Positions 10,793 through 62,789 are shown, numbered from the stretch's first letter. The stretch is 64,000 nt of DNA from Azolla caroliniana (GCA_043228905.1 JBHGNT010000009.1:12462001-12526000); one strand, 5' to 3'. Notes: generated by a model not told the origin, from the sequence alone. A program made the numbers and translations.

Positions 10793-13477
10793 CGAACACC
10801 GATAGGATTAGTCCGTATGTGCACACTACCACAAGGCGCAACGAACTCGGTCGCACACATGATGAATGGAATGAACAAGGTGCTTCAAGACTGCATTTTG
10901 GAGATAATGATGCCGTTCCTAGATGACATTCCGATGAAAGGATGCGCGGTGGAAGAAAAAGATGAGACTATGGATGATCGGGGATGCCGACAATTCGTAG
11001 TCGACCATATTCACGATTGCGAGAAAGAACTACGAAAGTTAGAAGATGTGCACCTAACACTTTCCGGAGAGAAATCGACATTCGGACAAGAAGAAATATT
11101 GGTAGTCAAACATCTATGTGGGCCCTACGGCCGAAGACCGTCACCAACCAAGATCGATGCGATTCAAGCTATGAAAGAAATATGCGAGTCACAATCCGAA
11201 GTCTGACAGTTTCTTGGAGCATGTGCATTCTATTAGATATGGATTCCGCACTATGCACATATTGCGGACCCACTCTATCACTTGTTGCGGAAGGGTAAGA
11301 AGTTCGAATGGAGACCGGAACACACCAAAGCCATGAAGAAGCTTAAGAAAACACTACGGAGGGCAGAATCACTTAAGAAGCCGAGCTATGACCGACGGAT
11401 CATAGTAACGGTTGACACAAGTCCAACCGAAATCGGATGGGTCATCAATCAAGCCGACTCGAATGGTTCGCGATATCCGATCCGATTCGGAGCAAAGGTT
11501 CTCAATGAAAGGCAATGCGGGTATGCACAAGTCAAAAGAGAATTATGGGGAGTTGTGTCGGCAATCAAATCGGATCTAGATTATTTGATTCGAGCCGAAA
11601 TAGTGATCAAAACGGATTGTCTTCCGATACTCGGGATAATGCGGTGTTGTACTATACCGGATGTGGCTATGCTAAGGTGGATTGCATATGTTAAGTCACT
11701 TAATCCGGAGGTACGCCACATCTCCGGAAAAGACAACACGGTAGCGGATATGCTATCAAGGGCGCGGTTCGGAGATAACATAACCGAATCTGATAATGAA
11801 GAATTTTCCGATGACTACTTTGCGTCAGAGCACATATCCCGGGTGAACGTAATCCGAGAATTCCGGGAAGAAGAATACGAGGGAGAAAACTTGCTGATCG
11901 GGAAAGTGCTACAAGAAATCGAGGAATCATCGGACAATAAAGAGAAGAGTGCTAAGATCCGAAGTAAGAAGCGGCAAGTTTGAAAGTTCTTCTTGAAAAA
12001 TGGATTAATATGGAGGGAGCCGAAAAGACCGGATGGCATACCACTTCAAGTAGTCGGGATAAAAGAGCAATGAAACAAGATAATGTCCGAATTTGATGAA
12101 TCCGATTGGGCTGGACATCGGGGAACATGGGCAACATTTGTGAAGATCAAGCAAAGATATTGGTGGAAGAATATGTACAAAGATGTCGCGGAGTTCACAG
12201 AAAGCTGCGAGAAATGCCAAGTCTACTCCGGGGTTCGACACCGAGATGAGTTACATCTGACATTCTCACCCACAATCAACTTCAAATGGATGGTCCACAT
12301 TGTAGCCATGCCAACCGGGATCGAACAAAAGAAGTACTTGGTGTTAGCTCGGGAAGATCTTACAAACCAAGTAGAAGGTCGAGCGCTACAGAGAAAAACA
12401 TGTTCTGCGGTATGCGAATTTCTTTTGGGAGAAGTGTATTGTAGGTACGGGTGCGTAGGACAAGTGATTGCGGATCGGGGAGAACTCAACTCTAATAAAG
12501 CTAGGGAATTCTTCACCAAACATGGAGTTCGGTTAACACTAACAACGGCATACAATCCGGAAGCCAACGGGAAGATCGAACGAGGACATAGTCCAATCGT
12601 CAAAGCACTTGCAAAAGCATGCGACGGAAGGGTGAAGGATTGGCTACAGATGCTCCTGTATGCACTATGGGCGGATCGTATGACGCATAGTTCCGTGACC
12701 GGTTTTATGCCAGTTGAACTCATGACCGAACAAACACTGGTAATGCCGACGGAAACCACAATTGCGACATGGATAGTGCTGCCGTGGAAGGAAGAGATGA
12801 GCCGGGAAGAACTACTAGTGGTCCGGATACGATAATTGGAGGGAAGACCAGAAGACATAGCAGAAGCAACATGCCGACAATAGGAAGCGCGATTCCGGAA
12901 CAAAAGCCGATTCAACACAAAGCATCGACTACGATCGTGGAAGATTGAAGAAGGAGATTGGGTGATTGTCTATAATAGTAGTCTGGATCATCAACATACA
13001 ACGATACAAAAGTTCGCGAAAAGGTGGTTTGGGCCATACGAGGTTCGGAAAGTTTTCGAGAACGCAACTTACCGACTATGCGAGTTGGATGGAACAGTAC
13101 TACGGGTGCCTATAGCGGGGAAACGGGTGAAGATTTTCAAGAAGCGAACTGACGAAGAACCCTATGTAACCCTAGACAAGACCGACATTGAGGAACAACC
13201 GGACAAAGATCGCGGTGATACGGAAAGCGAAGAAAGTGCACTACAATTCGTAGTCGACATAAGGGGAGAATCGGAGAGTGCTACGGATAAAGACGAATAA
13301 CATGCATCGGGAACTTCGGCACATACCGGAAGATGTGCGGTTTCAGAGGGGGTGAGTGTCATAGTGTAGTCTGCGCACACTACGTGAAAAATGTAAAAAT
13401 AATATATCCGATTTAAGTACATATATATAAATAAAAGAAAATATTAAAATATTTATTACATGCATAGGGCAAGATTC
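10793..13477 (+). mobile_element. Gypsy element D, 3' half (RT-RH-IN, PPT, truncated 3' LTR)
   Basis: RT (CTLPQGATN, PFLDD), RNase H (VTVDTS), integrase (DRGEL, YNPEANGKIERGH, WFGPY). PPT GAGGGGGTGAG 13346-13356. LTR starts TGTCATAGTG at 13357 like the J LTR at 37619 and breaks off at 13477. Confidence 0.9.
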
Positions 13478-18053: not shown

Positions 18054-21000
18054 ATGTATATGGCGAAATGGGCACACCGAGTTTTGGGCTTTTTGATATC
18101 TTAAACGTTTAGGCCAACTATCCCATTTTGTATATGGTAGATTCACTGTAATATCATTTTGTGTCGATATCATAATCCTTGGCATCCAACCATCCCATTT
18201 TGTATATTCCCATTTTGCACATGATGTACTCTTTATATATTCACTATCCATTGTAAGAGATTCGGTGTAAAATTAATATTCATTGCCATAATGAGGAAGC
18301 AATATTTTGATGTATATGGTATCTAAGTCGGTGATGCAATATTTTGGTGTAAAAGGTGTCAAAGTGTATTTTGAAATCATGACTGAAAATAAAGTGTATG
18401 ATCAATATGGTGTATAGGTGTATATGGTATCAAAGTTTATATATGAAATCCTCTTTCAATACTATGTGTGAGGAATTAATGGTAGAATATGTGGACAAAC
18501 CCGATGTTTGACAATATATAGAAGGACAATGGTGTGGCCTGACTTGTGTTTGGAGGAATATATGGCCCAAGTTTAGTAGATTATTCAACTATGGACATGT
18601 TGATATTACTACTATTATAAAGAGACATTGACAGTTTATCAAGTACACTGCTTTGAGAGGAGGAATAAACCAATCTATTACCGATCTTGTGCATGTCTTA
18701 ATCAAGGATAGTGAAACCGACACTTGCATCAAAGGGACCATCATGAATGGTACATGTAACGGCAAGAAATATAGTAGATTTGTGACCCATGCAAATTGTA
18801 GGGATCAAAGGTCAAGACTTAAAGAGATTGAGACGATTCTCGAAAGGTATGTGGTTGATACCAAAACGATGGATAATATGGGTGAGGCCCGATATTGGTT
18901 TAGAATATTGAGCATGGCCACTCCCACTCCAATGCTCTTATTGTGATTGCCAAGACCTTGCAAGTAAGTGTAAGCATTTACTCAAAATTTGGATGATCAT
19001 TGAGAGGCATATGTCATCCCTATGTGGGTCGTTATCATTTATAGATCATATGTCCCAAATGCGAATGGATGATATCATAGAAAAAGACATGGAGAGAGAG
19101 GTAGAAGCATATGACATTGAAGTCTAAAATACAAACAACCGAGGAAGTTATTGAATGGTTCAGCCAAGGGTTAGGATCCTTTAACAAGGTTGCATTTGAG
19201 GATTGTCTGCAACAAATGGCAGATCTTCGGAAAAAGGTGTATAGTTTAAGTGTGATGAAAGTAACCAATGAGGTGTATAATTCAGAAGCAACAAATTGGT
19301 GCAAAAAGAGGAGTGAGGCTCGACATTTCACAATAACTTATTGGCAACTCCCCAAACACTTCCGAATCCTATGCCGAAAGATTTACAAAGAGGTGCAAGT
19401 CGGTCTTGGAGGTGGTTGCCAATAAGTGAGACTGAGAAGGTTTGGAGTTTGCATTGCAATCGCTTGATCTTGACTTTCAGGGACTCGAATGCTTATTGCT
19501 GCAAAAATCATGGTTGTATTTTGTTGTCATGAATAGTACTAAAGACAGAGAGGAAAATAGTATTAGAGGTAGAGGAGGATGAGTACTGTGAGTACTTAAG
19601 AGGAAAAGATGGTGTGGAACTCACGAGAGAGAGATGATGGCAATAGAAGATATATATTATAAGGAGAAAGATACAAGAACAACTAGGAGGCTTAAGACTA
19701 GCGTTGAACTAAATTGGTTCTCAATAATGCCATGTGCCTCTTTTTATAGTATGCTTAGGAGTATTCTTGACATTTCTAGAATGTTCCAAAGAAATCTAGA
19801 ATATACATGGATTTCCTAAGTGAAATAATAAATGAAAACAAATCTTTTGTATTACAGTGTATAGCTTAATGATAGGGCTTTAACCCATGTGACACAAGGT
19901 CATGGGTTCAAATCTTTTTGAAGCCATATCAGGCTATATCATGACACTACCCCCCTCTTAAGACGAGTTCCACTCGTCGTCTTAGATTGAGGACCTAGTT
20001 TGTCTGGATATTGTTGATGGAAGTCCTAAATAAGAGCTCGAGCATTTGCTACATTCTCGATTGGTTCCCAAGTACGATCGCTTGGTATATAGCCTAGCCA
20101 ATCGACCAAATAGTAGAGCTTGTTGCGAACAATCTTGGAATCGAGGATGGCGGCAACTTCATAGTCCGGTCCTGCTTCAAGCTCAATCGGGGGTGGAGGT
20201 GGTGTAATACGATTCGGAATAGTGTTGTCTTGATAGGGTTTGAGGAGAGAACTATGAAAAACCGGATGTATCCATAGTTGCGGAGGTAGATCAAGGCGAA
20301 AAGTGACATCATTGATTTTTCTAATAATACAGAAAGGCCCTAATTGTCGATAATCCAATTTATTGCATGGTCGAGTAGTCTTGATGTGTCGTCATAATAG
20401 CCATACCCGATCTCCAATGTTAAAATAGGATGGAAGCCGATGACGATCCGCATAAACCTTTTGTGTTTGTTGAGCTTGATGTAAATGGGTAGATAGGTCT
20501 GCTTGTATCTTGCGTAGCCACTCCAAATGATCCTCTGCACGAGGATTTGTGGGTAACTCCGGAGTTTCAAATCCACACCACCGGGGATGATAGCCTATAT
20601 AAGCAAATTCGTCAAAGTGGAGAATATCCGCCCTATCAACCTATTGATAGCTTAGAAAACACCGAAGATACTATTCTGGTGTTTGATTTGTTTGTTCTTT
20701 TGGTCCGTTTGTTTAAGGTTGATAGTCGAAGGAGAGGTTACAAGTGACCTTGAGCATTTTAAAGAGATGCTTCCAAAATTTCGAGATGAATGGAGGTCCA
20801 CTATCGCTGATGATACACTAGTGGATAGAGTTATTATAAGCAAATTCGTCAAAATGGAGAATATCCGCTCTATCATCCTGTTGATAGCTTAGAAAACACC
20901 GAAGATACTATTCCAGTGTTTGATTTGTTTGTTCTTCTCGTCTGTCTGTTTAAGGGTGATAGTCAGAGGAGAGGTTACATGTGACCTTGTGCATTTTAAA

Positions 21001-23681: not shown

Positions 23682-26330
23682 TACATTAAATGATACTACA
23701 CACACCAAATTATCTAGGACAACCTGAATCGGTTCTGACTCTTCTACAATATTTCCGGAAGCAATGGGGCAACCATCAATGACTATTATAGATGTTGGGC
23801 AAGGAAGCTTTCTTAGGGATATTTGATGAGCTTGGGCAAAATTCCTATCCATGAAGCAAGAATTGGCTCCGGAATCTAAGAGTGTGTGAATGTAAACGTG
23901 TGGAAGCGTTAGATAAAACCGGCTCAGCCAAATAGCAACAAAGAATAGGAAAGGTTTAATGGAGAAGCTTAATACACAGAGAGTATACGCGGGCGGGGGG
24001 GGGAGAGAGAGAGAGAGAGAGAACATAAACTCAATTCAAAATATCACTCTAAAAACCTCTATATGTACAACGTGCTAAAACAACACTATTTATACAAGTC
24101 CATAAAAGACTGACAGAAGTACGGACATGTACTTCAATATTCCTATGTGCAATTGACACTAACTACAAGACAATGATTACCTAGTAGTCTAGGTAACTGC
24201 TAGGCTTCCGGTTCCCACTCGAATCCAACTCTCCGATCCGTCTCCCCGATCCGGCCGATTGTTTCCGGATACCGATCCGACTCATCCTTCTAGATGCCGA
24301 TTCGGATCCGGTTGAGCTTGCTCACTCAACACTCCCCCTCAAGCTCAACTTGAGGTCAGATCGTGGTGTTAGTGTTTGTGACAGTCGGTTCTTCTACTCG
24401 GCTCCTTCTAGCGTCGCTCTGCCTTGCTCACGCTCCTCATCTGGTCCGGTCCTGTTTGTCGCGACCCTTCTAGTTCTGCGCACCTCGACCTCCTCGATCG
24501 GCTTGTCTGCTCAATAGGCCCATTTCAGCTCCCTTGCTGTTGTGACTCTGGTGCTTGTCGACCTGTCGGTTCCTTTGTGTTGGCGTCGACTTCCGTTGCG
24601 TCCATGTTCGCTTGGCCTTTAGTTGATCTGGCTTCTCCGAATCTTGAACCGAATCGGTTTCCTTCGATTCATTCCAGCTCTTGTCTGAATCGGTGTTCTC
24701 CAACTCATCTTCCGATTTCAGGCCCTTCACCATATCAGACCATGTCTGGGTCTTGGCCTTCTCCTTCCAATCGGCTCTATTCTTCTTGACTCTGTCGCCA
24801 TTGCCACTCGTTCCGACTTGTTCGGACGTGCCAACTTCTTTCGTCGACTCGGCTTCCTTTTTCCTTTTGTCTCCCCCTTTGTTGGTTCTTTCTTCCTCTC
24901 CGGCTCCTTGTCCGGTGCCATCCGTTCCCTTTCCTTTTCTCCCCCTCAAGTGTGGCACATTGAGATGCTGAATACCGAGCATCTCCGAAAAATGTTGCAA
25001 TTTGTCCGATCCTAGCGGCTTGGTGAAGATGTCGGCAACCTGTCGATCCGTGTGAACATACCAAAGGTCAACTTCACCGCTCAGAACCCGCTCGCAAACA
25101 AAGTGATAATGCACTTCTATGTGCTTTGTCCGAGCATAGAACACGGGGTTCTTGGCGAGCTGAATGTTGCTCATGTTGTCACAGTAGATCAGGATCGTGT
25201 CCGTACCTCAATCCGCAGGTCTTGCAACATTCGCCGAAGCCAGATGGCGTCACAAGTGGCATTGGTAGCGCCCTGGTATTCAGCCTCAATGCTCGATAGA
25301 GCCACTGTTGGCTGCTTCTTGCTGCTCCACGCAACAACCACGCTACCTAGAGAAAACATGTAACTGGAGGTAGATCGGCGATCCGATGCATCACCAGCCC
25401 AGTCAACATCGATATATCCGACTAGCTTCCCAGCTATACCGTGCCAGTATAATAGTCCCCCACCCTTTGTGTGGTTAACATATCGGAGTATCTGATGTGC
25501 GCACTGAAGGTGCTCGACGGTCGGCTTCTACATGAACTGGCTAATCACTCCGATTAGGTAACTGATGTCGGGTCGAGTGATTGTCAGGTATATGAGGCTT
25601 CTGATAATTTGTCGAAACCATTTCTCATCGCAGGCCGGTCCAAAGTTGGGACTGAGTTTTTGGTTTCGGTTCAGAGGTGTGGAGACAGGTCGGCATTCCG
25701 TCATGCCGAACTTGTACAACATATTCAAAACATAGTGTCGTTGTGAGAGCAATATGCCATCGGGGGTTCGGATCACCTCGATCCCAAGAAAATAATGAAG
25801 GTCCCCAGGTCCTTCATTTCAAATGCGTCCGACAGCTAGGACTTTACTCGGCCGATTTCAGTGAATCATCAACATAAAGTAAGATGCAAACCAGACCGTC
25901 CGTGTCAGAACCAAGGATAAAAGATAGAGTGATGGAAGAAGGATATTAGAGAACACGAGAAGAAAGGAACCAAATACTAAGAGAAGAATGGATGTATAAG
26001 ATAGAGAAAGAAAGAGAATGGATACAAGATATATAATGAGAGCTAAAGACTGGTGTTGATTCGAATTGATTTGAGAATACATGTATGCCCTTATTTATAG
26101 GTTCCTATAGAATAGCTTAGAGATTTCTAGAATGTTCTAGAATGCTCTAGGACATTCTAGAACATTCTAGAGTAATCTAGAGTTTTTACAATAATCAATG
26201 TAATACAAGAAGTAGCTTTTATTGTTTCATATAACAATAAGCTATCTTAATGGTTGAGGTTTTCAAGTATGGATTACAAGGTTTGAGGTTCAAGTCCGGG
26301 TGACGCCATAATGGTCATGTGTTCACGACA

Positions 26331-29300
26331 CTATCCCTCCTTCGAGAACGCCGAGTGGAAGTCGGCGTTAACATTGTTGGGTCGGGCTTGTTTGGATAGT
26401 GACGATGGAAGTCGTTGACCAGAGCTTCAGCATTACAAACGTTATCGATGGGTTCCCAAGTGCGATCACTCAGTGGATAACCAAGCCAATCAACTAGATA
26501 ATAAAGCTTATTGCGCACAATCTTAGAATCGAGAATAGCAGCTACCTCGTATTCGGGGCCATCCACAAGTTGTACAGAAGGCGGTGGTGGCACGACACGA
26601 TTAGGAATTAAAGAGGTGTGGCAAGGTTCCAAAAGAGAGCTATGAAAGACAGGGTGAAGCCGCATATGTACAGGAAGGTTAAGACGAAATGTTGCATCAT
26701 TAATCTGCGCCGTGATGACAAAGGGACCTAAGCGTTGATAGTCAAGCTTAGCACACAGTCGGGTAGTCTTGATGTGACGATGAAGCAACCATACACGGTC
26801 ACCAACCTTAAACGGAGACTTAAGACGATGTCGATTGGCATTGGTCTTATGGTGTGCTTGCGCTTTCTGAAGATGGGACGATAACTCGAACTGGATTTGT
26901 TGTAGTCGGTGGAGGTGATGCGCCGCACTAGGGTTTCGTGACACTTCGGGAAGATCCAGTATACACCATCGAGGGTGGTTGCCGGTGTAGGCAAAGAAAG
27001 GTGTAACTTTGGTAGAAGAGTGGACCGTGTTGTTGTATGCAAACTCGGCAAGATGTAAAATATTACTCCAATCATCTTGTTGATAACTAATGAAACATCG
27101 AAGATATTGCTCGAGCGTTTGATTTGTGCGCTCTGTTTGTCCGTCAGTTTGTGGATGATAAGCCGAAGAGAGTTTGCAAGAGATTTTGAGGCCTGCCCAT
27201 AGGTGCTTCCAAAAGTGTGAGATAAATTGAGGACCTCGATCGCTAATAATATCATTCGGGAGACCATGATGGCGAAACACTTCACGCATAATGAGATCTG
27301 CAGTTTCTTCACTATTGATGGTCTTTACACATGGTACAAAATGTGCCATCTTGGTGAACCGATCCACTACTGTTAAAATAGTATCAAAACCTTTGGAAGG
27401 TGGCAGATCCGTAATGAAATCCATAGAAATAGACTGCCATGGCTTGTTGGGAGGGGGTAATGGTTGTAGTAAGCCATAAGGGTGATGTCGGGGTATTTTG
27501 GCGTGACAGTAGGTGTCACAAGTGCAAACATAATCTTCGACAAATTTTTGCAAGTGAGGCCACCAAAACGAACATTTCACCAGCTCAATGGTCTTGGAAA
27601 TACCAAAATGTCCAGCCATGGGGGCATCATGACAATGTTCCAACACTTGAAGTCGGGTTGATCCGTCGGGGACGTAAAGGAGATTCTTGTAGAAGAGTAA
27701 ACCATCTTGCCACTTGAAGTCCTGATAATGTTGAGATGACCCTGGCTATGTGGAGCAAGATGGACGACTTGAACCACAGTGGGCTAAGACATCCTTAGCA
27801 AAATCATCCGAATGAAGTTGTTGCCGAATAGTGTCAAGAAGGGTAGAATCAAGTGATGTGGCATAAATTGTTGTTACCTGTAGCTTTGATGGCCCGAGGA
27901 GAGTTTGCTTTTGATTGTCAAAGGCTGGATCTCCAGGTCGAAGTGCTAGATACGAATGCCGAGACAGAGCATCTGCTTTCCCTTGTTGTTTTCCGGGGCG
28001 AAAAATGATCTTGAAATCGAAACGCGTTAGAAATTGGGCCCACAGAGTCGTCTATTTAATACTCGAGCTGTTTGAAAATATGTGAGATTTTTGTGATCAC
28101 TATAAATGATAATCTGATGAGGTGATCCTTCTAGAAAATGACGCCATTGCTCGAATGAGTCGACCACAGTTAGTAACTCCTTGTCATGCACCTCATAGTT
28201 TATCTCCGAAACAGTAAATTTTCTCAAGTGAAACGCGACTGGATGTATCTGCCCGTCCTCGCCTGGTTGCGATAGGATACTACCCAATGCAAAGTTCGAT
28301 GCATCCGCCTCAATAGTAAATGGCTTTTCAGGATCAATATGTGCTAGGATGGGTGCTGATGTGAATGCCTCTTTCAGCTGCGTAAAAGCCTTGTCCGCTT
28401 CGATACTCCAAAAAAATGCTTGATTTTTCTTGGTGAGTTGAGTAAGGGGCAACACAATGCTTGAATAATTATGTATCCGAGGAAACACTGGACATCCCGA
28501 ACTGAGCATGGGGGTTTCCATTCCAATATTGTTTGGACTTTTTCCGGGTCCATGAAAACACCATGGGATGAAATAGTGTATCCCAAAAATTCGACTTGTT
28601 TGCAATCAAAACTGCATTTCTCAAGTTTGGCGTAAAGACCATACTTCCTTAGGCGTTCAAGTACTTGCCGCACATGTATATCATGCTCCCCCTATGTTTT
28701 AGAGTAAATCAATAGATCATCTAGGTAGATGATTAGAAAAATATCCAAGAAATCCCGGAAGATGTCATTTGCCATATGTTGGAATACAGCAGGTGCATTT
28801 GTGAGCCCGAAAGGCATGACTATATACTCGAAATGACCATACCGAGTACGAAATGTTGTTTTCCACTCATCTCCCGACCGAATTAGAACAAGATTATATG
28901 CACTCCTTAGATCAATTTTGGTAAAATGCTTTGCCCCACCAATGCGTTCTAAGAGATTGGAGATTAAAGGTATAGCATACCTATTCCTTATGGTGACTTT
29001 ATTTAAGCCTCGATAGTCCACGACCAAACGAAGGGAGCCGTCCTTTTTCTTCACAAAAAAGATAGGAGCACCAACTGGAGACTTTGAATGTCGAATAAAC
29101 CCATGTGCAAGATTTTCCTCGATGTATTCTCGAAGAACCTCAAGCTCAGTGGGTGATAAATTGTAAATCGGACCCCACGGTGGCTCTTTTCCTGGTTGGA
29201 GATCAATAGGACAGTCGTACGGCCGATGCTTTGGAAGAACACTAGCTTTGACTTTGTCGAAAACATCAGCATAGTCTTGATATTTTTTGGGAATTTGGAT

Positions 29301-29915
29301 GTCTGAATTCCCTTGAGTGACACTAGAAGGTGTCACTGATACTGCAAATAAGAAAAGGTCCTCCTTGCCTCCCACTTGGCGCAATTGTTGCAATGTGATG
29401 GCCGAAATTTGAGGAGAAGGATATGGTGCATCGATAGAACTATATACTTTGGGAGGATAATCCCGAGTTCGATCCTTGACAATGATATTTTCTGCTAAAT
29501 GGCACCTAATTTCTCGCTTCCTCCAATCGATTCTAGGGTTATGTAGCTCGAACCATGGCAAACCGAGGACAATTGGATGCTCAGGACTACGGATTATGTT
29601 AAAGGAAACTACACATCCTAAATCACCCAAGAGTATGTGTATTGGCTTAGACTCTTCAAATAACTTCCCGGAAGCTATGGGGCGTCCATCAATCACTACT
29701 ATGGAAACTGGACAAGGAAGTGTATGCAAGGATATTTGGTGTTTTTGGGCAAAATCTCTATCCATGAAACAAGAATTGGCTCCAGTATCTAAGAGGGCTT
29801 GGACTTGAAGTTGACAACTGGGTGTCCTAACTTGTACTAGGGCTGAGAAGACTCTACTAACATGCTTGGAAGTAATGGAACCCACACTAGGTTGTACATA
29901 TCTAGGGTTGTCCAA
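26331..29915 (-). pseudogene. pol: Pol of element I (PR-RT-RH-IN-chromodomain) with a few stops and frameshifts
   Basis: ORFs 28692-29915, 28374-28673, 28027-28605 and 26315-27646. Confidence 0.9.
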
Positions 29916-29941
29916 CCAAATGGCTCCTATTTTGGCCAGAC

Positions 29942-31106
29942 TTATTCGTTTGACTCCTCTTCTAATTGGCTTAGGACTTCAAATTTATTGGACAAGGGTG
30001 GATTATTCATAATATTAGATTCACTAACTACTTCTAAAATGTTGGACTCATTTTTATTGTCATAGTGAATTTGATTTACCTGACGTCTTGGCCTACGGGA
30101 GCAATGAATGGCTATATGTCCTGGACCTCCACAATATAAGCACAGATGGTTTGCTCGACGACGTTGCTTCTCTTCGTCTGACAACGGTCCTCGTCGTTGA
30201 GTCATATCGATCTCCATGGGTGTAGGACTATCCATTGGGACTGGACTACGTGTTTGCCTTGGAGTTGGAGCAGGGCTATACATTTGCCTTGGGGATGATT
30301 GCGTCGTTACTGATGCATAAGTTGGTGTGAATCTTGATCTTGTTATTTGTTGTTGTCTCTCACATCGACGCTCAAAAAGGCGATTATCACACCGTATTGC
30401 TTAACTAATAGCTTCTGTAAGTGATCTTGGATCCTCGGGGAAGGTAAGAAGTAAGTCTTTGACATCACTACGAAGGCCTGAACGGAATTGCTCCATTAGG
30501 GCTTGTTCATCCCAAGGAATATCGCTTGCGATGAGATGGAAATTGGCAGCATATGTTGAAGCTGGTTGATCACCTTGACGAAGTGTACGAATCTTGTTGA
30601 TAGATGTTCTTGCCCCATCAGTATCTCCGAAACAAGCCTTAAATTCCTTGATAAATTCCTCGAAATTATTCAGTAGAGGAGAATTGGTCTCTAGCAATGG
30701 AGCAAACCACGACAACACTATGCCAGTCAATAAAGTGCCCACTAGCCTGACTCGTGATGCATCTGTTGGATAACGTGCGGGATGCATTTGAATCACCAAC
30801 CGTACTTGATTCAAAAAACCTCGGAAATGCGCCCTCGACCCATCAAATTTAGCTGGGAGGCTAATTTTGGGCTCCTTGATAAGTCCCTGACCTTCAACCC
30901 TTTGTTGTTGTAACACGACGATTGTCGACTCTAACTGTTGCACTCGTCGCGTGAACTCCTCTTATTGTTGTTGCTTCTCTATAGTAACCTTTTGTAGATC
31001 CCCAAGTAGACGTTGATTCTCTACTTCAAGAGATGTGAACTTTGATTTAAGGTTCTCCATTTTTGCAACAAGGGTGAGATATTCTTCTGAGTTAATGGCA
31101 GCCATG
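29942..31106 (-). pseudogene. gag: Gag of element I with in-frame stops
   Basis: EPKISLPAKFDGSR, LRQGDQPASTY, PMEID and CCHC knuckle. Confidence 0.85.
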
Positions 31107-31129
31107 GTTTCAGGATGGTTACAAAGGAG

Positions 31130-31132
<3 letters not shown>

Positions 31133-31180
<48 letters not shown>
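31133..31180 (+). repeat. (GA)n microsatellite in the leader of element I
   Basis: About 24 GA units directly adjacent to the PBS. Confidence 0.95.
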
Positions 31181-31184
<4 letters not shown>

Positions 31185-31414
31185 GAATCAAACTGTCAGA
31201 ACCAAGGATAAAAGATAGAGTGATGGAAGAAGGATATTAGAGAACACGAGAAGAAAGGAACCAAATACTAAGAGAAGAATGGATGTATAAGATAGAGAAA
31301 GAAAGAGAATGGATACAAGATATATAATGAGAGCTAAAGACTGGTGTTGATTCGAATTGATTTGAGAATACATGTATGCCTTTATTTATAGGTTCCTATA
31401 GAATAGCTTAGAGA

Positions 31415-31474
31415 TTTCTAGAATGTTCTAGAATGCTCTAGGACATTCTAGAACATTCTAGAATAATCTAGAGT
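31415..31474. promoter_or_regulatory. Heat-shock element array in U3 of the element I LTR (second copy ~26124-26183)
   Basis: Alternating TTC/GAA every 5 bp (TTCtaGAAtgTTCtaGAAtgCTCtaGGAcaTTCtaGAAcaTTCtaGAA), 25-80 bp upstream of TATAAATA (- strand, 31383-31390). Confidence 0.75.
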
Positions 31475-34400
31475 TTTTACAATAATCAATGTAATACAAG
31501 AAGTAGCTTTTATTGTTTCATATAACAATAAGCTATCTTAATGGTTGAGGTTTTCAAGTATGGATTACAAGGTTCGAGGTTCAAGTCCGGGTGACGCCAT
31601 AATGGTCATGTGTTCATGACACTCCGGACCTTGCCGGATGAACAAAAATGAGTCGGATTTAGAGGTCACAAACCCCATCTTACGCAACCGGTGTGTGATC
31701 TTCGCATTCCAAGCTCGGGGGCCTTGTTTCGGACCGTAAAGCGACTTCTTAAAACGGCACACCGCCGACTTGTTCATCTCCGACTGAAAACTGGGAGGTT
31801 GGATCATATAGACCCGTTCTTCAAGGTCACCTTGAAGAAACGCATTCTTCACGTCCATCTGGTGAAGATGCCACCCCCTTGCCGCAACACGAACCGTCGT
31901 CATCTTCGCCAGTACCACACGAACCGTTGTCATCTTCGCTACCGTGGGTCTGTGCGTATCCCTTCGCCACTAATCGGGCCTAGTACCACTTAACCGAACC
32001 TTCGGCATTGTACTTTATCTTATACACCCATTTGCAACCGATTGGTTTACAATATCGGGGAGGGTCAACAAGGTTCCATGTGTCGTTGGCATCGAGTGCC
32101 CGCATTTCTTCTTCCATAGCGGCACGCCAATTTGCGTCCTTTGCCGCTTTTGTGTAGCTCTCCGGCTCACGCACTTCCACCACTTTGGTCATGTACGCAT
32201 AGTGATGCGCCATGTACTCATTGTACCCGTACCGCGTAACAGGGTTCTTCTGGCGGGAAGACCGTTGTAACTTGGTGTCACCCGGTTTGGGGCCCTTCTT
32301 GCCCGGTTCGGACTTCGTTCTCGAAGATCCGCCTTCATCCTTTCCGAAGTCGGATTCACTTTGATCTGACTCAATGTTGTCGGTTTCATATTCCGACATC
32401 TTCTTCTTCCCCTTCTCTTTGCGTGTGAACCGTCTCCTCGGTTCCTTGCGCGGGGAGAGCACAACAGAGTCTCCACTACTCATCAGTTCCTCATCCAACT
32501 GGTCATCCCGACTCAACCGCTCCCGAGTTGTTGAAAAAGGCTTCATTGTTCTGGCTAACAGATATTTATGATGAATGGCTACAATTTGACTGGACTGAAG
32601 ACAAACATCATTTTTACTCATTCGGTCCACTTAGCCGGAATGAGATTGGACTCTCTTCTAGAGTGCCGAAGTCTTCACCTTCTACCTGGACCTCCTCGGG
32701 CTCACTAACCTCATCTTCTGGAATCGGGACTTCGTCGGGAGTTGGAGTTGGTAAGGAGTACCATGATGCCGTCTCATCAAACTCGACATCTCGGCTTACT
32801 CGGACCTGCTTAGTCCGGGGGTTATAGCACTTATACCCCTTCTGCTCATGCAAGTAGCTGACTAGGATGCACTTCTCCGACTTCAGATCCAGCTTCCTCC
32901 TCTTCTCATCCGGTACATGCACATATGCTATGCTACCGAATATCTGAAGGTGTCTCAAATTCAGCTTCCGCCCAAAATATAGCTCATGTGCTGACACCTT
33001 GTCACCGATCCGGTTTTGGATGTAGACAACCATTCGGACCGCCTCAGCTCAGTAGAAATGGGGCATGCTCTTCTCCTCCAGCATTGCCCTTGCCGCGTCG
33101 ACAATCGACTGGTTCTTCCTTTCGGCCACACCTTTTTGCTCCGGCATGTATCTACAGCTGAATTCTCTCCGAAGTCCGTTCTACTGCAGATAATTGTTGA
33201 ATTGGCTAGAAAAGTATTCTTTTCCGCCATCTGACCGCAAGCACTTGACCTTCCTCTCCGTTTCCCGTTCAACTAAGCTTTGTAAGTTCCGGAAACATTC
33301 AAAGACTTCGCTCTTCCGTTCGATGAGGTAGATCCACGTGTGTTGGTTGTAGTCGTCGATGAAGGAGACGAAGTATTGACTCCCACCAAGACTAACATTT
33401 TGTGTTGATCCCCATGCATCTGAATGGATTAGATCGAGCTTGTTACAACTTCGATTTCATTCGGTGGGGAATGGAAGCCGATGTTGCTTCTCGAGTTGGC
33501 AGGCTTCACAAATTTCAGCCTTCCGGCCACTGAATTTTGGCAATCCAAACACAACTTGTTTCAATTGCAGGTCTTGGAGCCTCTGGTAATTGACGTGGCC
33601 AATCCGCTTGTGCCACAGGTCAATGTCCAACCCGACCTTCTGCCCTTTGGCAAATATGGCGGTGCCAATGTCATTGGTGTTGAGGATGAACATCCTCCCT
33701 TCTCTACGCCCTTGCGCAATTATCCGGCCTTCTTCCTTGATGAAGCACCCTAGGTGCGTAAACCGCACCTGCATCCCCTGGTTGTCGATTTGTCCAACTG
33801 ACACCAGGTTCTTTGTGATAGTCGGAACATGTAGTATGTTCATCGGCTTCCCTTTTTGTCCGACATGGCTTAAAGGGACTTCTCCGACATGCACAATCAG
33901 GTGAGGGGTGTCGTCTCTGGTTTCGACAATCCCCAAATGTTCCGACTTCTCCAAAAAGGAGAACCACTCTTCATGGCTCGTCATGTGGTTGGACGCTCCT
34001 GAATCAACGTACCATACTTCCTCCGATTTGGAAGTAGTCTCCTTCATTGAGTTAGCCTTGTGCTTCATTACGAAGGCTGGCCTGGCCCTTTACCGTTTTT
34101 CCCAGTTCCGAATCCTTCCGATCCTTCCACGTAGTGCGACCTTTGTCGGTTCTCCCGACCGGTTTTGCCGGATCCGGATTTGTCCGAATCGGCACGTTTC
34201 TTCCAACACTCGCTTTCCCTGTGGCCCTTTTTGCCATAGTACCATCATTCCATGTCGGCCTTTCCTTACTGATTCTCGGTGCCGCTTTGACTCCCCTTGC
34301 TTGTGGAGGGTCCGGAACTGTTGTCGACACCACACCACCTCTGTGCCTCCGGTCCTGCTCTTGTCAGTCGCCTCCATTGCGTGCCGACCCACCTCGTCCA

Positions 34401-34984: not shown

Positions 34985-37900
34985 ATAGTTAGAGAAAAAG
35001 CATGGATTACTTTTAGAAAAAGCATGTTAGAGAAAGCATATAGTCTATAGTTAGAGAAAAAGCATGGATTGCTAAGACTCTCTCATCACTATATAAGGAT
35101 GTGGAGCACAATGTAATAAGGGGGGGGAAAATAAAAAAATAATGAGGTGATTATTAGAGTCTAAATATTGATTAATATAATACTCATGGGATTCGCGAGT
35201 TTTTGATCTCTCTTTTCCAATCTATTCCAATCAATTCCAATCGAATCCAAAGTATAATTAGGGTTAAATATTAATAAAACTAAACAAAACTATATTCGTG
35301 GGATTCACGAATTTCTATCTCTCTTTCTTATAATCTATTCATAACTAGACTCATCTCAAATTCTTCCTCCGCCTAGTCCAAAACCCCAATGGTTCCCACC
35401 CGACTCACGCAACGATCCGACGCCGAAAGGCACGACACAATTTGGTGAACCTGACATGAAGACGGATGACAAGGAGATGGAGAATCAACAAGAGGCGATG
35501 AACACGATGATGATGATGTTCGAGCGGATGCTACAAGAACAACAAGCGATGTCGGAGATCACAGTGGTAGTAAAGCGGCTCGTACAATGAAACGGACAAT
35601 TCAACGGAAAGGATGCATCACGCTATCTACGTGACTACAAGGCGGAGATGATACGATGTGGGATACCGGAAGGATTGCAAGTGATATCCTTCAATCGGGT
35701 AGCCACCGATGAGTTACAAGAGAGAATCTACAAGATACGGCAACAAAACCCAACATGGGGGTCCTTTGAAGAAGCTTTACGAGAGGCATATGACTACGAG
35801 AGATCAAAGGGACAAGATCGACGCGAGTTTCACCAGTGGGTGGCATCAACGAAGACCCACCGAAGCGCAACACAAGCATTCCTAGAGTTCGAGCATCATT
35901 TTGCTCGACTCTCGGAGCGGGAACAAAGATTGGTGGGGGAGGATAAAGTCCTAATGTTCATAAGATCGATTGATCGAAAAGAAAGGATAGACATCAGGAT
36001 CGAACTCGAAGATGATGACGGTACAAATGGTCTTACCGAGGATTGGGTTGAAGTCGAAAGAGTATGCCGAACACATGATAAGAGGAAGACGAGAATCTCG
36101 TCGGCAACAACATGGCCTATAAGGGATGATCGATTGAGGATGAATGATGTGTCTGAGACAAAGGCCGAAGTACGATACATCAGTACCACGAGAGAGGGTA
36201 TAGAAGAAGGCATCCTCTTGTCTTGCGAAAGAACGATGGCTAAGGATAAGACCGATAACTTGAGAGTGGCGAACACCACTTCAAGGGTGGAAGAAGGTTT
36301 CGGGATACGAGTGTTTGAAATATCAAGAGAGAAAGGGGTAAGCATAATCGATGCTTGCATGATCAAGGGAGATAAAGAGTGCGAGGCGGACATGATTAAG
36401 GAGGTAGACACGAAAGATGACATCGAGTCGGAGGTGGCTATGGACGAGTCAATGGCGAATGGCCGTGTCGAGACTTTCCCACCACTAATTCCAGAGACTT
36501 TGGCGGTTGCGTTCGAAAGGCAACGTGAGACCGAAGAGATGGAAGGTGGCGGAGAGAAAACGAAGGTCGAAGCCGATTCATACAATGGAGAGATAGTCGA
36601 GAAGGTGGCTATGGGTGAAACGACGGGGGACGATAATACCGAGTATTCCTGCCCACTAATTCTAGAAACTTTGGCGGTTGTATCCGAGAACCAACGTGAG
36701 ACAAGAGAGACGGGAGATGGCGACAAGGAAGGTAAAGTCGAAAGTCAGTTCGAATGGAAGATGATCCCGTCCGAAATTCCAATCTAAACGAAAGCCAAAC
36801 GAAGCAGAAGTGGATTCAGCCGAAATCTGATCGGTCGAGCTCGACCCAGATGGAAATCGTTCCAGCCGGAAGCCGATCGGATGAGACCAATCCAGAAAGA
36901 AGCTAATACGACTCAATCGGAGGTTGAACCGGTCAAGGCAGGTGAACACGAGGAAAAGGAATCCAACCCAAACCAAAACCGATCGGTCGAACCCAAACCA
37001 AAAGGGGGCCAACTCAGTTGAAACCGATCAACCGAGTCTGATTCGGCCAAACGCGAATACGGATGGAAGCCGACCTAACTGAAAGCCAATCAAACAAGAC
37101 CGTTCCGGAAAGAAGCTAATACGACTCAACCAGAGGTCAAAACAATCGAGGCCAGTGAACACGAGGAAGAGGCCAAGCAGGCACACTACCACAGACGACA
37201 AGGGCAAAGCAGATTTGAAGGGTGTTACTGAGGATGAGATCTCGACAAAGAAGGATGGCTCTAACATGAAAATTGTCAACTCTAACGCGAGATTGTACGA
37301 CGAAGGTGGACGAAGTGCGGAGTGTCTTGACTAAGGAGACAGTCGGAACGAAGGTGGCACAAGCACGAGACATGAAGGATTATGCTCAAGAGGAGCACAA
37401 GGAGTCATGACAACTAGTCATGGCCATGCAAAGAGTGAATGAAGAATATGGTGGATCAGATGGCGACAATGGTTTGGGTGGAAGGAATGGACATGCTCAA
37501 AATGGAGAGACAAAGTCAACATTGCGAGAGAAATTGAGGATATTACGGATGAAAGAGAATATCGAGCTCCAACAACTTCGGCACATACCGGAGGATGTGC
37601 AGGTTTGGAGGGGGTGAGTGTCATAGTGTATTTCGTACACTACGTGAAAAACGTATAAAGTACCAGATTTAATAAATATGAAGAAAACGAAGAAAATATG
37701 AGACTACATGTTACATGCACAGGGCAAGATTCAAACCTTGTACCTCCATGTTAATAATTTGAAGCATTACCATTGCAATAACACATCATGCATGTCAAAA
37801 AAGCAGATATCCCACATCAAAAGGTTTAGTTAGATGAAAAACGCATGATAGAAAAAAGCTACACATGTATAGTCGATAAAAACGCATGAGGTTAGAAAAA

Positions 37901-38344
37901 AAAAGCATGTTAGAGAAAGCGTATAGTCTATAAATAGAGAAAGCATATAGTTTATAGTTAGAGAAAAAGCATGGATTGTTAAGACTCTCTCATCACTATA
38001 TAAGGATGTGGAGCACAATGTAATAAGGGGGAAAAAAACAAAAAAATAATGGGGTGATTATTAGAGTCTAAATACTGATTAATATAATACTCATGGGATT
38101 CACGAGTTTTTGATCTCTCTTTTCCAATCTATTCCTATCGATTCCAATTGAATCCAAAGTATAATTAGGGTTAAATATTAATAAAACTAAAAAAAACTAT
38201 ATTCGTGGGATTCACGAATTTCTATCTCTCTTTCTTATAATCTATTCATAACTAGACTCATCTCAAATTCTTCCTCCTCCTAGTCCAAAACCCCAGTGGT
38301 TCCCACCCGACTCACGCAACGATCCGACGCCGAAAGGCACGACA
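34985..38344 (+). mobile_element. Non-autonomous gag-only Gypsy element J (D-family LTR), inserted in G gag
   Basis: Truncated 5' LTR 34985-35437 and full 3' LTR 37619-38344 (TGTCAT...CACGACA). Degenerate tRNA-Trp PBS 35443-35460. PPT ~37608-37618. Gag-like frame 35456-36787. No PR, RT, RH or IN motifs. Confidence 0.88.
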
Positions 38345-40314
38345 ACGTAAGTAGAGGCTGGACAATCACCTTGACGTAATCATCGGATTTTGTTGATTTC
38401 CGTCCTTATGCTATTAGTATCTCCAAAACAGGCTTTAAACTCGCTTATAAACTCCTCAAAATTATTTAGTAATGGAGATCTTTTCTCTAACAACGGAGCG
38501 AACCATGCCAAAGTTGAGCCGCTCAACAACGGAACCCACTCGTGATGCATCCGTGGGATATTTGGAAGGATGCATTTGAATGACTAATCGTACATGATTA
38601 AGGAATCCTCTGAACTGTGATCGCGTTCCATCGAATTTCATAGGAAGGCTAATCTTGGGCTCTTTATGAATCCCTTGAGTACTTGGTCCTTATTGTTGCA
38701 ATGCTACAATGGTTGCTTCAAGTAGTAGCACGTGTAACGCTAGCTTCCCATGTTGTTGTTGCAACTCCTTGTGTTGTTGTTGCGTTTATTGCTTTTCTAA
38801 AGAGATTTGTTGAAGATCCCCTAACATCTGTTGATTTTCTTGTTCCAATGCAACAAACCTTTCTTTCAAGCATTGCAGCTCCGAGAAAACGGATTGATAT
38901 TCTTGAGCGCTAACAATTGTCATAGTATTGGAGGAAGGAGGGATAAGAGGATTAGTATGAAGGGAGGGAGGAGTAAGAAGATAGAGAAAATTGGTTCAAA
39001 CTATCAAGAATAGTATGAAAGACGGAGAGGGAATTAGTACTAAAGGTAGAGGAGGATGCCTACTATGGGTACTTAAGAGGAAAAGATGGTGTGGAACTCA
39101 CAAGAGAGAGAGAGAGAGAGATGATGGCAATAGAAGATATATATTATAAGGAGAAAGATACAAGAACAACTAGGAGGCTTAAGACTGACGTTGAACTGAA
39201 TTGGTTCTCAATAATGCCATATGCCTCTTTTTATAGCGTGATTAGGAGTATTCTTGACATTTCTAGAATGTTCCAGAGAAATCTAGAATATACATGGAAT
39301 TCCTAAGTGAAATAATAAATGAAAACAATATTTCTCATATTGTAATGTATAAACTTAATGGTAGGGCTTTAACCCATGTGACATAAGGTCATGGCTTCAA
39401 ATCCTTTTGAAGCCTTACCATGCCATATCATGTCATTTGCCAATCTCCCCACATGATCTCAACTTTTGTATGGATTCAATTTTCATGTCTAGGTTTTGGG
39501 TATTTGATTTTTGAGATTTTTGGTCTCCGAAATCAACATTGGATAACTTATGATCTTAAAAACTTTTTATGGCTCGAAATTTGAAGTTTCTAGTATGTTG
39601 AAAACATATTTTTGGTTTTTTAGTGGCCGAACTTTTAATGCCGTGGCAAAATCTAAGATGGAACGATGTTTGGAATGATCTCTAACTTTTTGTTGTACAT
39701 TGGGAAGAAGATTTGCGTGTGTTTTAATTTTAATGGTGGAAGTTTTATATATCAAAAACTCTGTGATCTTGATGTCATATATATTTTTTGGACTTACACA
39801 AGTTTTTTGAAGTTTTTGATGTCAAGCTTTGAGTCGGGCCATTGCCTTGAAGTAGTTGTTCTATTGCTTTGAGTCGGGCGACTACCCTGAGTCGTCAATC
39901 GGGCTATTGCAGTCAAAGAGTCAGGCAATCGAGTGACAGATGAGACGACGGCGTGGCACATATCCTCGGAAACGCATGGCCCAACATTCCCTCCCTCCCT
40001 CCCTCCCTCCCTCGGGAGCCCAACCCAACCCAACTTTTGATTTTGGTAGCAATGAGACACACGAGAGCCTTTCTAAACGACTTAAAATTAATTCACTACA
40101 TATTCCTTCTTCTTTTATTTTAATTATTCCTTCATCATTCAATGAAATTCCTCGCCATCGCCAAAACACACACAGAGAAGACAGAAATTCTCTGTGAATG
40201 AAGACATTCGGATAGCTTCGTGTTTGAAGGAGAAGAAGTAAAAGTTTTCTTTGTACGTTTGCTTGTTTCAAATCAGAACAGAGGAAGAACAAGGTCCAGG
40301 TCTTTGAGATCGGA

Positions 40315-43700: not shown

Positions 43701-46700
43701 ACTACGCAATGTGATAGGGCTGGGTAAAGGTAAAGAGGGATGTTTGACAAATCAGCTATTGAGAGATGACATTCAGCAAATAGGACTGTAGTAGAGATGA
43801 GAGTAGAGACACGTAGATCTTTGGTGTACCCAACCGCCTTGATTGATACCCACGAATCCGGTAAAGTCATAAGTAGGAAGATAGCTTTGAGCTTGTCATC
43901 AAAAGCTGGTAATCCTGAATCTTGTAGTTGGGAGAGAGTACCTGTGAATAACGATAGATGCTCTGTTGCACCTTTCGACTCATCAAGCCTCATACTGACA
44001 AGTTTTCTCATCAAATGCACCTGATTCACAGGAGTAGTATTCTCGTAAGTTTTCTTAAGTTTCTCCCAAACTTGATGGGCAGTAGTCAAGCCCTTTACAT
44101 CTACAAGAATTTCATCAGAAACAACCATTTTAATATATGTAATGGCCTTCTTATTCAGAGTGTTCCAAGCATCATTTTCCATCCTCTCTGGTTTCTTTTC
44201 TACGAGAGCATCTTCACAATCTCTTAGAAAGAGGATGCCCAGCATACTCTCTTTCCACAATTCGAAACCTTTTCCATTAAATCTCTTGATTTCAAAGAGG
44301 TTTTTCACTTCAGCTGAAGTGGAGGCCATTGCTCCCAAGATTTATGACAGATGCCTTCAGAAATTGAGCAGAATACCAGTAGGAAAGGGTCTGACAGATT
44401 TTTTATTTTTTAAATTTGTGTTTTCTGCTGATTCTGAATCTAAAGAAAAACAGCAAAGCAGAGGAAAGAGATTTGGCTTTGATACCAGTTAAAGGTAAAG
44501 AGGGATGTTTGACAGATCAGCTATTGAGAGATGACGTTCAGCAAACAGGACTGTAGTAGAGATGAGAGTAGAGACACGCAGATCTTTGGTGTACCCAACT
44601 GCCTTGATTGGTACACAAGAAAAAAAGGTTATTATATTAGTTAACCTTACAAAGAAAGTGGTGTGTTCACATTACAAAACGAGGTGTCCTGTCCAGGTGA
44701 ACAATGTGTTAACATATACCTAATTTGTGAACTACGGGCCTTTACATCTAACAGCTGGGAACTTCATCACATCAGTTAGAGATTTAGGTAGATATGCATG
44801 AATACCTTAATACCTCTAGAATTTGCGAATTGTGTCATCATGGAGTGAAATTTGACGAACACTATGTTTGTCACTGTAGCATTCAAATAAGAGGGTGATA
44901 TAGTTGCCTCTTTAACCAAGGGTTTGGCCCACTAGCCAAGGTAATGGAATGTGGGATTTTTCTTGTAGAACTGAAAAGACACAGGGGAAAGTTTTTGAAG
45001 GATAATAGTATAACAACACAAGCTCATCAACAAAGAACAATCACAACTTTCTTTATCCCCATCACTCCGACTCATGCTACAAGTCAATCAAGGGCTACTC
45101 AAATGGGCTCTTGAGCAGGACAAATAATAGAAGTATGTGGGTCATCTAGGTAAGTATGTGATATGGGCATCCCCGGTTACCTAGTGTGTTTGGCACTTCC
45201 ACATCTCCAGTCTCCTATACTTACTGAACAATTGAACATGCTTGGCCTTGGCTATGCCTTCTATAATGTTGCTCACATGTGATAACCATCTAAATGTAGA
45301 AGCTCAAAGATAAGCTCCTTCAAGTTAGCAAACCTTATGTCCTCCACAAAAGATTGGTGGTTGCCATCTTGATGCAGCAGCAGTAATCAGCATATCACGA
45401 CCTCAATATTTTTCCTTGGAAAATGAGATCAATTTGCATATCTGAATCCCCATGTATCTTTGTACGACACATATACCCTTGATAGGCACTTGTTCTTGAC
45501 GTAATACGTTCTTCTATTGGAAGCTCAAGTATTAACATTATCATAGGAGTGGTGACAAATGAGGATTGACTCAGTTCCACCATGTCATTCTCCTTCGAAG
45601 TTTCTTCGAAGTTTCCCAATGGTTCCTTAGTACATGCACTCTGATTGATTACGAGGGGATTGAAAATGTATCCATCTGTGGAATTTTTAGCTAATGGGCG
45701 AAGAATATCTCAAGTGGACAAGAGGGCAACTGATTCTTAAGCAAACATTCTGACAGTTGCAGAGATATGGCAGAGCGAGTTGGTAGGGATATGATAAACT
45801 GTTAAATAATGAGAACAATCGTGGATCGCAGGCTTTATTTTAATGGCTAGCACACTTATGTTTTTTCTCCACACTTGTTTTGTTATTCAATCTTCATTTC
45901 GGAATTTTGTTGCAGGTAATCATACTTGGATCAGACGGTGTATACACATCATCAGAGTATGTGTCCAGTTAATGATTGATCTATTTTGAAAAGCTTCCAA
46001 AAAATTCTGTTTTTTTGTTTTTGTCAATTTAGTTGACATTGTTTTCTACCTGCATTATGTGGTTTTCAGCGGAATTCTACTTTAAAGATTGTAGAACTCA
46101 GTCATTGTTGGGGGATTCTTCTTCTTGTAGTATTATTAGATGTAAAATATTTGAGATTCTATATTACTTAATTTTCTTAAGGTTTTGTTTTGGCTGGTGC
46201 TTGTTTTATACTGGCTAAGCTTTATTTCAATGGAATCTCGACCATTTTAAAGTTTGCTGTCCTTAGATTCTGTTATAGGAGCCATTGTAGATTCAGACAG
46301 TAATCTTGTTTTTTGAGATCATGCAACATCCCACATTTTCTTCACACAAAATTCATTAATCATTCTGGTCATGGGAATACTGTTTCCCCTATTGTTATGC
46401 AATGCATATATAGTCAATTGAGGATTTTTGCCCATCCATCTGTTTCCACAGCAGCCAAGTTGTGCAATTATTTTATCCTGGAAAGGACTATTTCTTTCAT
46501 TCTTGAGCAGGCAGAAACATGAATATAATTACTGTGCAATGTATGGAATCTGTGGGGCTCGGGAGGATGGAAAAGCGTTGAACTGTCCAAACTATGTGCT
46601 GGCAACAGAGGTAGTTTTGTCTTACCATTTCATGTGAATGGAAATTGATTGAGTGTGTCAGTTGATGTTCTCGGAGATTTATTTCAAGTCTATATCTTTC

Positions 46701-61279: not shown

Positions 61280-61314
<35 letters not shown>

Positions 61315-62463: not shown

Positions 62464-62789
62464 GTATATCTTCCTGTGCTTTTTTGTTGAGTCTTCTTTG
62501 AATTGGTTTTTGCATCCTTTTCAAAGAAAAGAAGACTTATATTAAGAGTAACAGTTTTGTGTCATAGAACATTATTTCTTACATCCATAGACCTCTATTA
62601 ATCATCCACATAACAACCATGTACTTTTTCGAATGTGCATATAACTCATCTCTTCTGTGTCAAAGTCATTGCATAAAGCAGCCACAAATTTTCCCACGCA
62701 ATGGGCAATGCCCCCAAACTTGGTAATCATACGAAATAGTTCATATGATGAGGAATAGTCACAAGGAGATGCTTGCAGTGCAAAATAAC

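Follow-up and report, generated by a model that had tools for sequence, protein, structure and literature searches.

The LTRs of H, a chromovirus of the Tcn1 type, carry at the outer edge of U3 a tRNA-derived pair of Pol III promoter boxes that faces out of the element, and on comparison of sequences this module is real and conserved. Pol III boxes in LTRs are already known, but their antisense arrangement in an autonomous element is apparently new.

The window, i.e., the complete 64-kb stretch of DNA that was analysed, consists in its left 39 kb of nested LTR retrotransposons. Its right part is occupied by a Niemann-Pick C1-like gene (45900-62500) with long introns that are filled with repeats and contain a copia fragment. 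One exon of this gene is closest, among named sequences, to those of ferns (Ceratopteris 84%, Adiantum 78%), so that the host is most likely a fern. Element H (25903-31621, minus strand, 5.7 kb) lies within a copia element, which together with element J lies within element G. H is bordered by a 5-bp target duplication with one mismatch (GTCCG/CTCCG). Coordinates of all features are compiled in Table 1.

Table 1 Features of elements H, G, J and D in the window.
Feature	Position	Strand	Remarks
5' LTR of H	31194..31621	-	428 bp, TG...CA; 4 differences from the 3' LTR
tRNA-derived module, tRNA positions 1-73	31527..31599	+	register from a host tRNA-Pro gene and family comparison
A box TATCTTAATGG	31534-31544	+	1 mismatch to TRGYNNARYGG
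B box GGTTCAAGTCC	31578-31588	+	44 nt from A box, start to start
AGGT(C) variable-loop motif (44-48) and B box (52-62)	31570..31588	+	
AT-rich spacer upstream of module	31476..31526	+	predicted TFIIIB site
Heat-shock element array	31414..31465		two runs of 4 perfect nGAAn units
TATA box	31383..31390	-	32-33 nt from self-primer, fixed in families
Self-primer, 12 nt	31347..31358	-	at predicted transcript start; exact PBS complement
PBS for self-primer	31180..31191	-	
gag of H	30404..31106	-	interrupted by a stop in the window copy; Retrotrans_gag and Ty3_capsid in 30404-30961
pol pieces of H	26318..29978	-	protease, RT, RNase H, integrase, SH3, chromodomain
3' LTR of H	25903..26330	-	preceded by polypurine tract, about 26331-26344
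A box to B box, 3' LTR of H	26243..26297	+	A 26243, B 26287
5' LTR of G	39002..39435	-	88% identity to 3' LTR of G
3' LTR of G	19525..19946	-	same Tcn1 clade as H; with HSEs, TATA box and module
Module in 3' LTR of G	A 19862, B 19905	+	43 nt apart
3' LTR of J (Gypsy)	37619..38344	+	TGG-type PBS, no chromodomain match
Antisense A/B module in U3 of J	37727..37780	-	43-nt spacing; B box about 108 nt from LTR start
Boxes of J	A about 37770-37780, B 37727-37737	-	profile score 26.7
Truncated LTR of D (J family)	13357..13477	+	78% identity to J; ends inside B box

H is a young, self-priming Tcn1-type chromovirus. It exhibits the domain order gag, protease, reverse transcriptase, RNase H and integrase with a C-terminal chromodomain that is a feature of the Tcn1 clade and, likewise as in this clade, H and its relatives possess a self-priming PBS and not a tRNA PBS. 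According to the available parts of two descriptions, Tcn1 chromoviruses of non-seed plants share with H the domain order, the chromodomain and self-priming along with LTRs of about 430 bp and a 5-bp target duplication; a Pol III module is not mentioned in these parts (PMC2864245, PMC6317226). The self-primer pointed out in the preliminary description is thus present, but it is no novelty, self-priming being a known trait of Tcn1 (PMC6317226, excerpt). In the relatives it comprises 11-12 nt, lies 32-33 nt past the TATA box and occurs in four compensated variants. By eye, the LTR segment following the TATA box of Selaginella SM-Tcn1 matches the PBS over at least 12 nt in the same layout as in H; the available part of the source paper for SM-Tcn1 reported no evidence of self-priming. 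In the R region of many families (L014, L018, L020, L023 and L024), the end of the self-primer together with the bases after it reads GGTTCAACRCC in sense, a perfect B-box match that lacks an A box, is missing from H and L038 and is probably coincidental.

The pol gene of the window copy is split over several frames. Its relatives are protein-coding: 15 of 31 rows have a pol frame of 1183-1302 aa that is free of stops, and many of the remaining rows are cut by contig ends. In three DNA runs, 2242, 1399 and 895 contigs fell on the H LTR, a depth expected of an abundant family. Contigs guessed to be RNA (unstranded) numbered one on the H LTR and none on J and are uninformative for expression, and a search of viral contigs yielded nothing useful.

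The A and B boxes that had been proposed for the 5' LTR of H with a spacing of 44 nt were recovered there, and a copy resides in the 3' LTR. The distance equals that from position 8 to position 52 of a tRNA. Since H is on the minus strand and the boxes are on the plus strand, the module is antisense and faces out of the LTR; its B box ends 33 nt short of the U3 end. A search of the window for A/B pairs with at most one mismatch per box and a spacing of 41-46 nt gave three matches, all of them in LTRs of H and G. The order of parts was likewise described correctly: from the outer end of the H LTR the antisense module is followed by an AT-rich spacer, heat-shock elements (HSEs), TATA box and self-primer, with the PBS thereafter, and the LTR of G has the same order. 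The claim that G carries a tRNA-like sequence different from that of H needs correction. The two modules are most likely the same by descent and not separate captures, because both elements fall into one clade, starred in our trees, in which identity between the boxes tracks integrase identity. In the 5' LTR of G the module has decayed (B box at 39394, G53 changed, profile score 29.9).

Alignment of integrases retrieved 77 metagenome loci, 44 with an ERZ and 33 with a Ga prefix. The ERZ loci include close relatives of H with integrases that are 82-89% identical and LTRs that are near-identical, and we infer that they stem from the same host as H or from related ones. Four were dropped, two because they end before the chromodomain (L029, L049), one joined to other DNA (L032) and one that was too short (L036); the remaining 40 together with H and G formed 24 families at 90% DNA identity. 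Note that the surveyed contigs are short-read assemblies of repeats and possibly mosaics of many copies. For each family, the first 170 nt of U3 were searched in antisense for the best A+B match, which was compared with 200 dinucleotide shuffles. The match beat the shuffles in 22 of the 24 families (p<0.05) and did not do so in L031 and L045, and the typical module score was never equalled by the sense strand, the next 170 nt or integrase DNA. All 22 families have the module in antisense orientation close to the U3 end, and 10-59 nt separate the end of the B box from that of the LTR. The two boxes are 43 or 44 nt apart in a search that allowed 40-48; this spacing came from the automatic best match in 21 families and from manual anchoring in L037. 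The conjecture of a common LTR design is therefore borne out insofar as the module is enriched and fixed in position and orientation across families; it also recurs in a distant Gypsy lineage.

The survey yielded several side observations. In L029:1300-1600 a module-bearing Tcn1-type LTR with a third enhancer type (tandem 22-nt repeats) is nested in the U5 of an H-type LTR. At L014:1-470, a tRNA-Asp copy and partial tRNA-Asp repeats adjoin Tcn1 pol, which may reflect a tRNA-bearing insert or an assembly join. L041-L044, L047 and L050 encode chromodomain integrases followed by an extra ORF in place of a recognisable LTR. In a second host group, L055:3380-3440, L068:4830-4890 and L058:3190-3245 contain a repeated A/B module that is AT-rich upstream, scores 23-29 and is not associated with an LTR, possibly a SINE or other repeat. 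A second weak A/B match in the pol of L003/L005 (score 19-20) was discarded as likely due to chance, as it lies in coding sequence and is absent from the matches of H.

Conservation within the module is highly uneven. G46, T47, G53, T54, T55, C56 and A58 are invariant in 22/22 families, T8 and A14 are kept in 21 and the D-loop TGG in 20. Positions 44-48 were outside the search pattern, and their conservation is thus independent support. While C56 is kept throughout, G57 of the same CpG is changed in 6/22 families, as the B-box consensus allows, and positions 9-11 and 59-62 vary freely. Across 208 distant pairs the boxes are 71% identical, a value that arises partly by construction of the search, compared with 33% between the boxes, 30-33% in the flanks and 26% at random. 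Coding constraint on the module was rejected because pol frames terminate no more than about 25 nt away from the LTR start; that of H crosses the polypurine tract and stops 14-16 nt into the 3' LTR (26315-26330). The module might be neutral, left over from the insertion of a tRNA or SINE and simply copied with the LTR. Single copies do decay, as in L053, L059 and the 5' LTR of G (in L021/L022 C56 is changed). However, boxes kept amid near-random flanks and inter-box sequence, fixed spacing, invariant bases and recurrence in J largely refute such a relic, which is exceedingly improbable.

The same pattern bears on a Ty3-like role, in which the sense genomic RNA would anneal to the D and T arms of a host tRNA and thereby be packaged, dimerised or circularised. 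The U3 of Ty3 pairs with two arms of the primer tRNA, T-psi-C and D, and such pairing leaves tRNA-arm complements where the module is found (PMC5371799, available part). The bipartite PBS of Ty3 matches one primer tRNA, whereas the modules studied here follow promoter rules in elements that prime themselves (PMC5371799, available part). Moreover, annealing would tolerate G-U pairs, of which there are none at G46, T47, G53, T54 and T55 in 22 families, it would not require a spacing of 43-44 nt, and it sits poorly with the freely varying positions 9-11 and 59-62. We consider annealing of tRNAs very unlikely.

An RNA fold is not what has been kept. ARAGORN found no credible tRNA in the modules at normal or relaxed thresholds, and the Rfam tRNA search had no match in the H module and only a T arm of 13 bits in that of G; an Rfam scan of the window returned just hairpin and repeat noise. 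The H module does not fold better than its shuffles (z +1.18). Stems are mostly no better than swapped partners (p 0.33 for Watson-Crick pairs of the acceptor stem, 0.13 for the T, 0.38 for the anticodon and 0.02 for the D stem), and the value of 0.04 for the acceptor stem with G-U pairs is likely owed to L038. A pairing test on 13 rows exceeded shuffles (2/500), but two of these rows were a real tRNA gene and L038. We therefore reject both a conserved cloverleaf and a functional tRNA gene with an anticodon arm, while residual pairing of the T arm may persist. tRNA ancestry is still visible in L038, with 7/7 pairs in the acceptor stem and an Rfam tRNA score of 27.8 bits (E 5e-4, cut-off 29), though of the stems only acceptor and T are retained.

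What has been kept are features of a type 2 Pol III promoter, namely A and B boxes at tRNA spacing and AT-rich sequence upstream (mean A+T 82% over 40 nt, 20 families). A T-run terminator at a fixed place was not found: the first T4 lies anywhere from position 25 to 1088, and in H a T4 run resides between the two boxes. CAA near the start is not enriched (7/22 families vs a background of 0.24 per window). Such a promoter could belong to a Pol III gene that makes an antisense RNA, as the preliminary description had also considered. From the 3' LTR this RNA would cross the polypurine tract into the integrase tail and tune expression or copy number. Boxes, exact spacing, single orientation and the AT-rich upstream sequence are all kept, and orientation matters more to an RNA than to a chromatin barrier. 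On the other hand, neither fold nor inter-box sequence is conserved, and transcription from the 5' LTR copy would enter host DNA that differs between insertions. The missing conserved fold and terminator weaken the antisense RNA role, and we regard it as unlikely. Conservation of bases and spacing without that of fold and T runs instead indicates a protein-binding DNA site with promoter geometry, and loss of most of the tRNA fold and the terminator suggests that selection acts on a DNA site for TFIIIC/TFIIIB. Judged by these comparisons, the module is very probably a working TFIIIC-type site.

Outside the Tcn1 clade, a module was found in J, whose lineage is distant: the integrase of D is 24% identical to that of H. 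J yielded no chromodomain match and no self-complement over 7 nt. A profile built from the 22 modules gave five matches with scores of at least 12 in the window, two in H, two in G and one in J; the highest score in 15 shuffled windows was 15.2, against 26.7 for J. The antisense U3 module that had been reported for the LTRs of both D and J thus stands for J, whereas the LTR of D breaks off inside the B box at 13477. Among J copies from three DNA runs, variation affects 2 of 38 sites around the B box (37721-37758) vs 21 of 59 in 37652-37710. At the A box, the letters most frequent among the copies agree with the consensus more closely than those of the window copy. C56, the canonical base, accounts for only 29-37% of depth, a reference-biased figure, and is changed in about two thirds of the depth. 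The evidence from J concerns one family and is weaker than that from the Tcn1 set.

The module is not a general property of Tcn1 elements. None of the 24 scored Ga loci, which represent about three families with tandem-repeat U3s from a second host group, contains it (4-8 mismatches), and it was not seen by eye in SM-Tcn1, so that it is dispensable for the clade. None of the eight scorable loci among 17 from a genome collection exceeded the profile threshold in U3. In the window, the copia-type LTRs (pairs at 4.7/9.9, 43.7/44.5 and 50.7/52.2 kb, single LTR at 24 kb) are devoid of it. The U3 of L081 and L083, fungal-like relatives from prokaryote bins, contains an antisense sequence resembling a B box, 86-103 nt away from the LTR end; there is no good A box, and these B-box-only matches are below the profile threshold.

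With regard to origin, a tRNA gene or SINE head would have been captured in antisense. Twenty-two families, H and G among them, fall into the starred clade (99/99; trees without a named Tcn1 reference). Identity between the boxes follows that of the integrases (Mantel rho 0.27, p 0.003), which argues for one old capture that was inherited within the clade. L038 is placed with the Ga families, which lack the module (98/96), a grouping that hints at another, more recent capture in its lineage; the alternative of a single clade is not rejected (p-AU 0.053). No SINE tail or target duplication is visible around the tRNA head in the 22 aligned modules, the flanks of which are too diverged.

Perfect HSEs of at least three units occur in the window only in the four LTRs of H and G (9/9 matches), and the HSE array had been taken as part of the fixed design. 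This part of the claim fails across families, as HSEs are present in only 11/22. In their place, 8/22 families have CATGC-rich and G-box-like motifs, known as RY and ABRE motifs, and three are too short to type. The neighbouring enhancer is thus exchangeable between families, and all typed enhancers look inducible. Yeast tRNA genes dampen nearby promoters. By analogy, a Pol III complex on the module might damp the adjacent Pol II promoter until stress shuts down Pol III and frees it; together with the HSE or seed/spore-type enhancer this would form a two-key switch. The predicted TFIIIB site adjoining the enhancer and the inducible look of every typed enhancer agree with damping; we hold it to be distinctly unlikely.

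We favour, with just under even confidence, a function in which the module binds TFIIIC/TFIIIB and provides the Pol II promoter with a portable barrier or nucleosome-free anchor. Its location between host flank and enhancer, the lost RNA features and its independence of enhancer type all favour this reading. TFIIIC would bind the A and B boxes at the outer edge of U3 and TFIIIB would sit on the AT-rich stretch adjoining the enhancer, so that enhancer and TATA box would be shielded from silencing that spreads out of repeat-rich landing sites. Selection on the module would work through transposition, and any Pol III RNA would be a by-product. According to the parts available of the sources, a full Pol III complex needs both boxes and AT-rich upstream sequence (PMC13578239), and TFIIIB/TFIIIC limit silent chromatin in yeast (PMC9540200). 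Chromoviruses of the H type are thought to target heterochromatin (PMC7466625, excerpt), which would create the need for a barrier. Two points speak against a barrier: it need not have one orientation, yet all modules face outward, and the element's own transcript runs across the module of the 3' LTR. Of all the facts, the constant outward orientation is the one that the barrier model accounts for least.

The module could also act at integration, either tying the end of the cDNA to chromatin or offering a landing pad to elements that target Pol III genes. In Tcn1 families the cDNA end is 10-59 nt away, and Ty1 targets Pol III genes (PMC12786077, available part). H and J have, however, inserted into coding regions of other elements and not beside modules, and the only nested LTR seen in an H-type LTR (L029) is about 200 nt from the module. 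A role at integration seems decidedly improbable. Extending the barrier reading, several fern Gypsy lineages may independently have domesticated a tRNA gene as an outward TFIIIC/TFIIIB insulator at the LTR edge that would allow heterochromatin-seeking elements to keep a swappable stress or developmental enhancer usable at any landing site; we offer this broader scenario as a tentative possibility.

Further analogies are the Pol III units in foamy-virus U3 and the Drosophila gypsy insulator. Works on tDNA/TFIIIC barriers and boundaries reportedly include Simms 2008, Scott 2007 and Noma 2006. The TRIMs of the Helenus/TRIMp3 type come close in that their LTRs contain tRNA-derived sequence that is conserved around the A and B boxes, as it is in H, and mostly yields no working tRNA (Kojima 2024, PMC10886601, in part). 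Helenus elements are short, non-coding and non-autonomous and have a tRNA-type PBS, while H has gag-pol and primes itself (PMC10886601, in part); J, unlike H, has a TGG-type PBS. In the supplementary entries available, the tRNA-like part of Helenus lies in sense within the 3' half of the LTR, as a proposed source of the genomic RNA, whereas the H-type module has the antisense orientation and sits at the outer edge of U3, in LTRs that, unlike those of Helenus, have Pol II promoters with HSEs and TATA box (PMC10886601). The same excerpt considers long LTR sequence shared with autonomous partners unlikely and states that 'not a few LTRs' in Repbase show tRNA similarity, LTRs over 1000 bp not having been studied. 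Cassandra TRIMs, too, have a Pol III promoter inside a plant LTR, ferns included, but it is derived from 5S, belongs to a non-autonomous element and drives the element's own sense transcript (PMC10886601, PMC12786077, both in part). ONSEN shares with H an HSE array in U3; it is a Copia element, for which the available text mentions no Pol III module (PMC12786077). Like tDNA/TFIIIC barriers and SINE boundaries, the A/B-box DNA described here is a candidate boundary, one that moves with a retroelement (PMC9540200, PMC8136502, both in part). Those barriers were demonstrated in yeasts and mammals on host genes or SINEs, whereas the present one is a prediction from DNA sequence; the accessible portion of the source gives no plant example of a tRNA-gene barrier (PMC9540200). 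In mouse, the B2 boundary was linked to CTCF and restricted open chromatin (PMC8136502, excerpt). In a recent review of plant LTR host factors, Cassandra is the sole Pol III case within the sections available, and the accessible text of a plant LTR motif study contains no Pol III-box terms. We found no report of antisense A/B boxes in autonomous plant LTRs in a literature that was covered in part.

Autonomous LTRs are usually taken as pure Pol II promoters, and Pol III boxes are known from tiny TRIMs, where they are in sense. A constrained antisense pair across an autonomous clade and in a distant lineage needs a function different from that in TRIMs. The module bears on how chromoviruses stay expressible in silent chromatin and offers a small, mutable test of tRNA-gene-type barriers in plants. 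Abundant LTRs of this kind would scatter many TFIIIC sites over fern genomes. If the insulator reading is true, the module would be a new anti-silencing device of transposons and the first mobile, testable tDNA barrier in plants.
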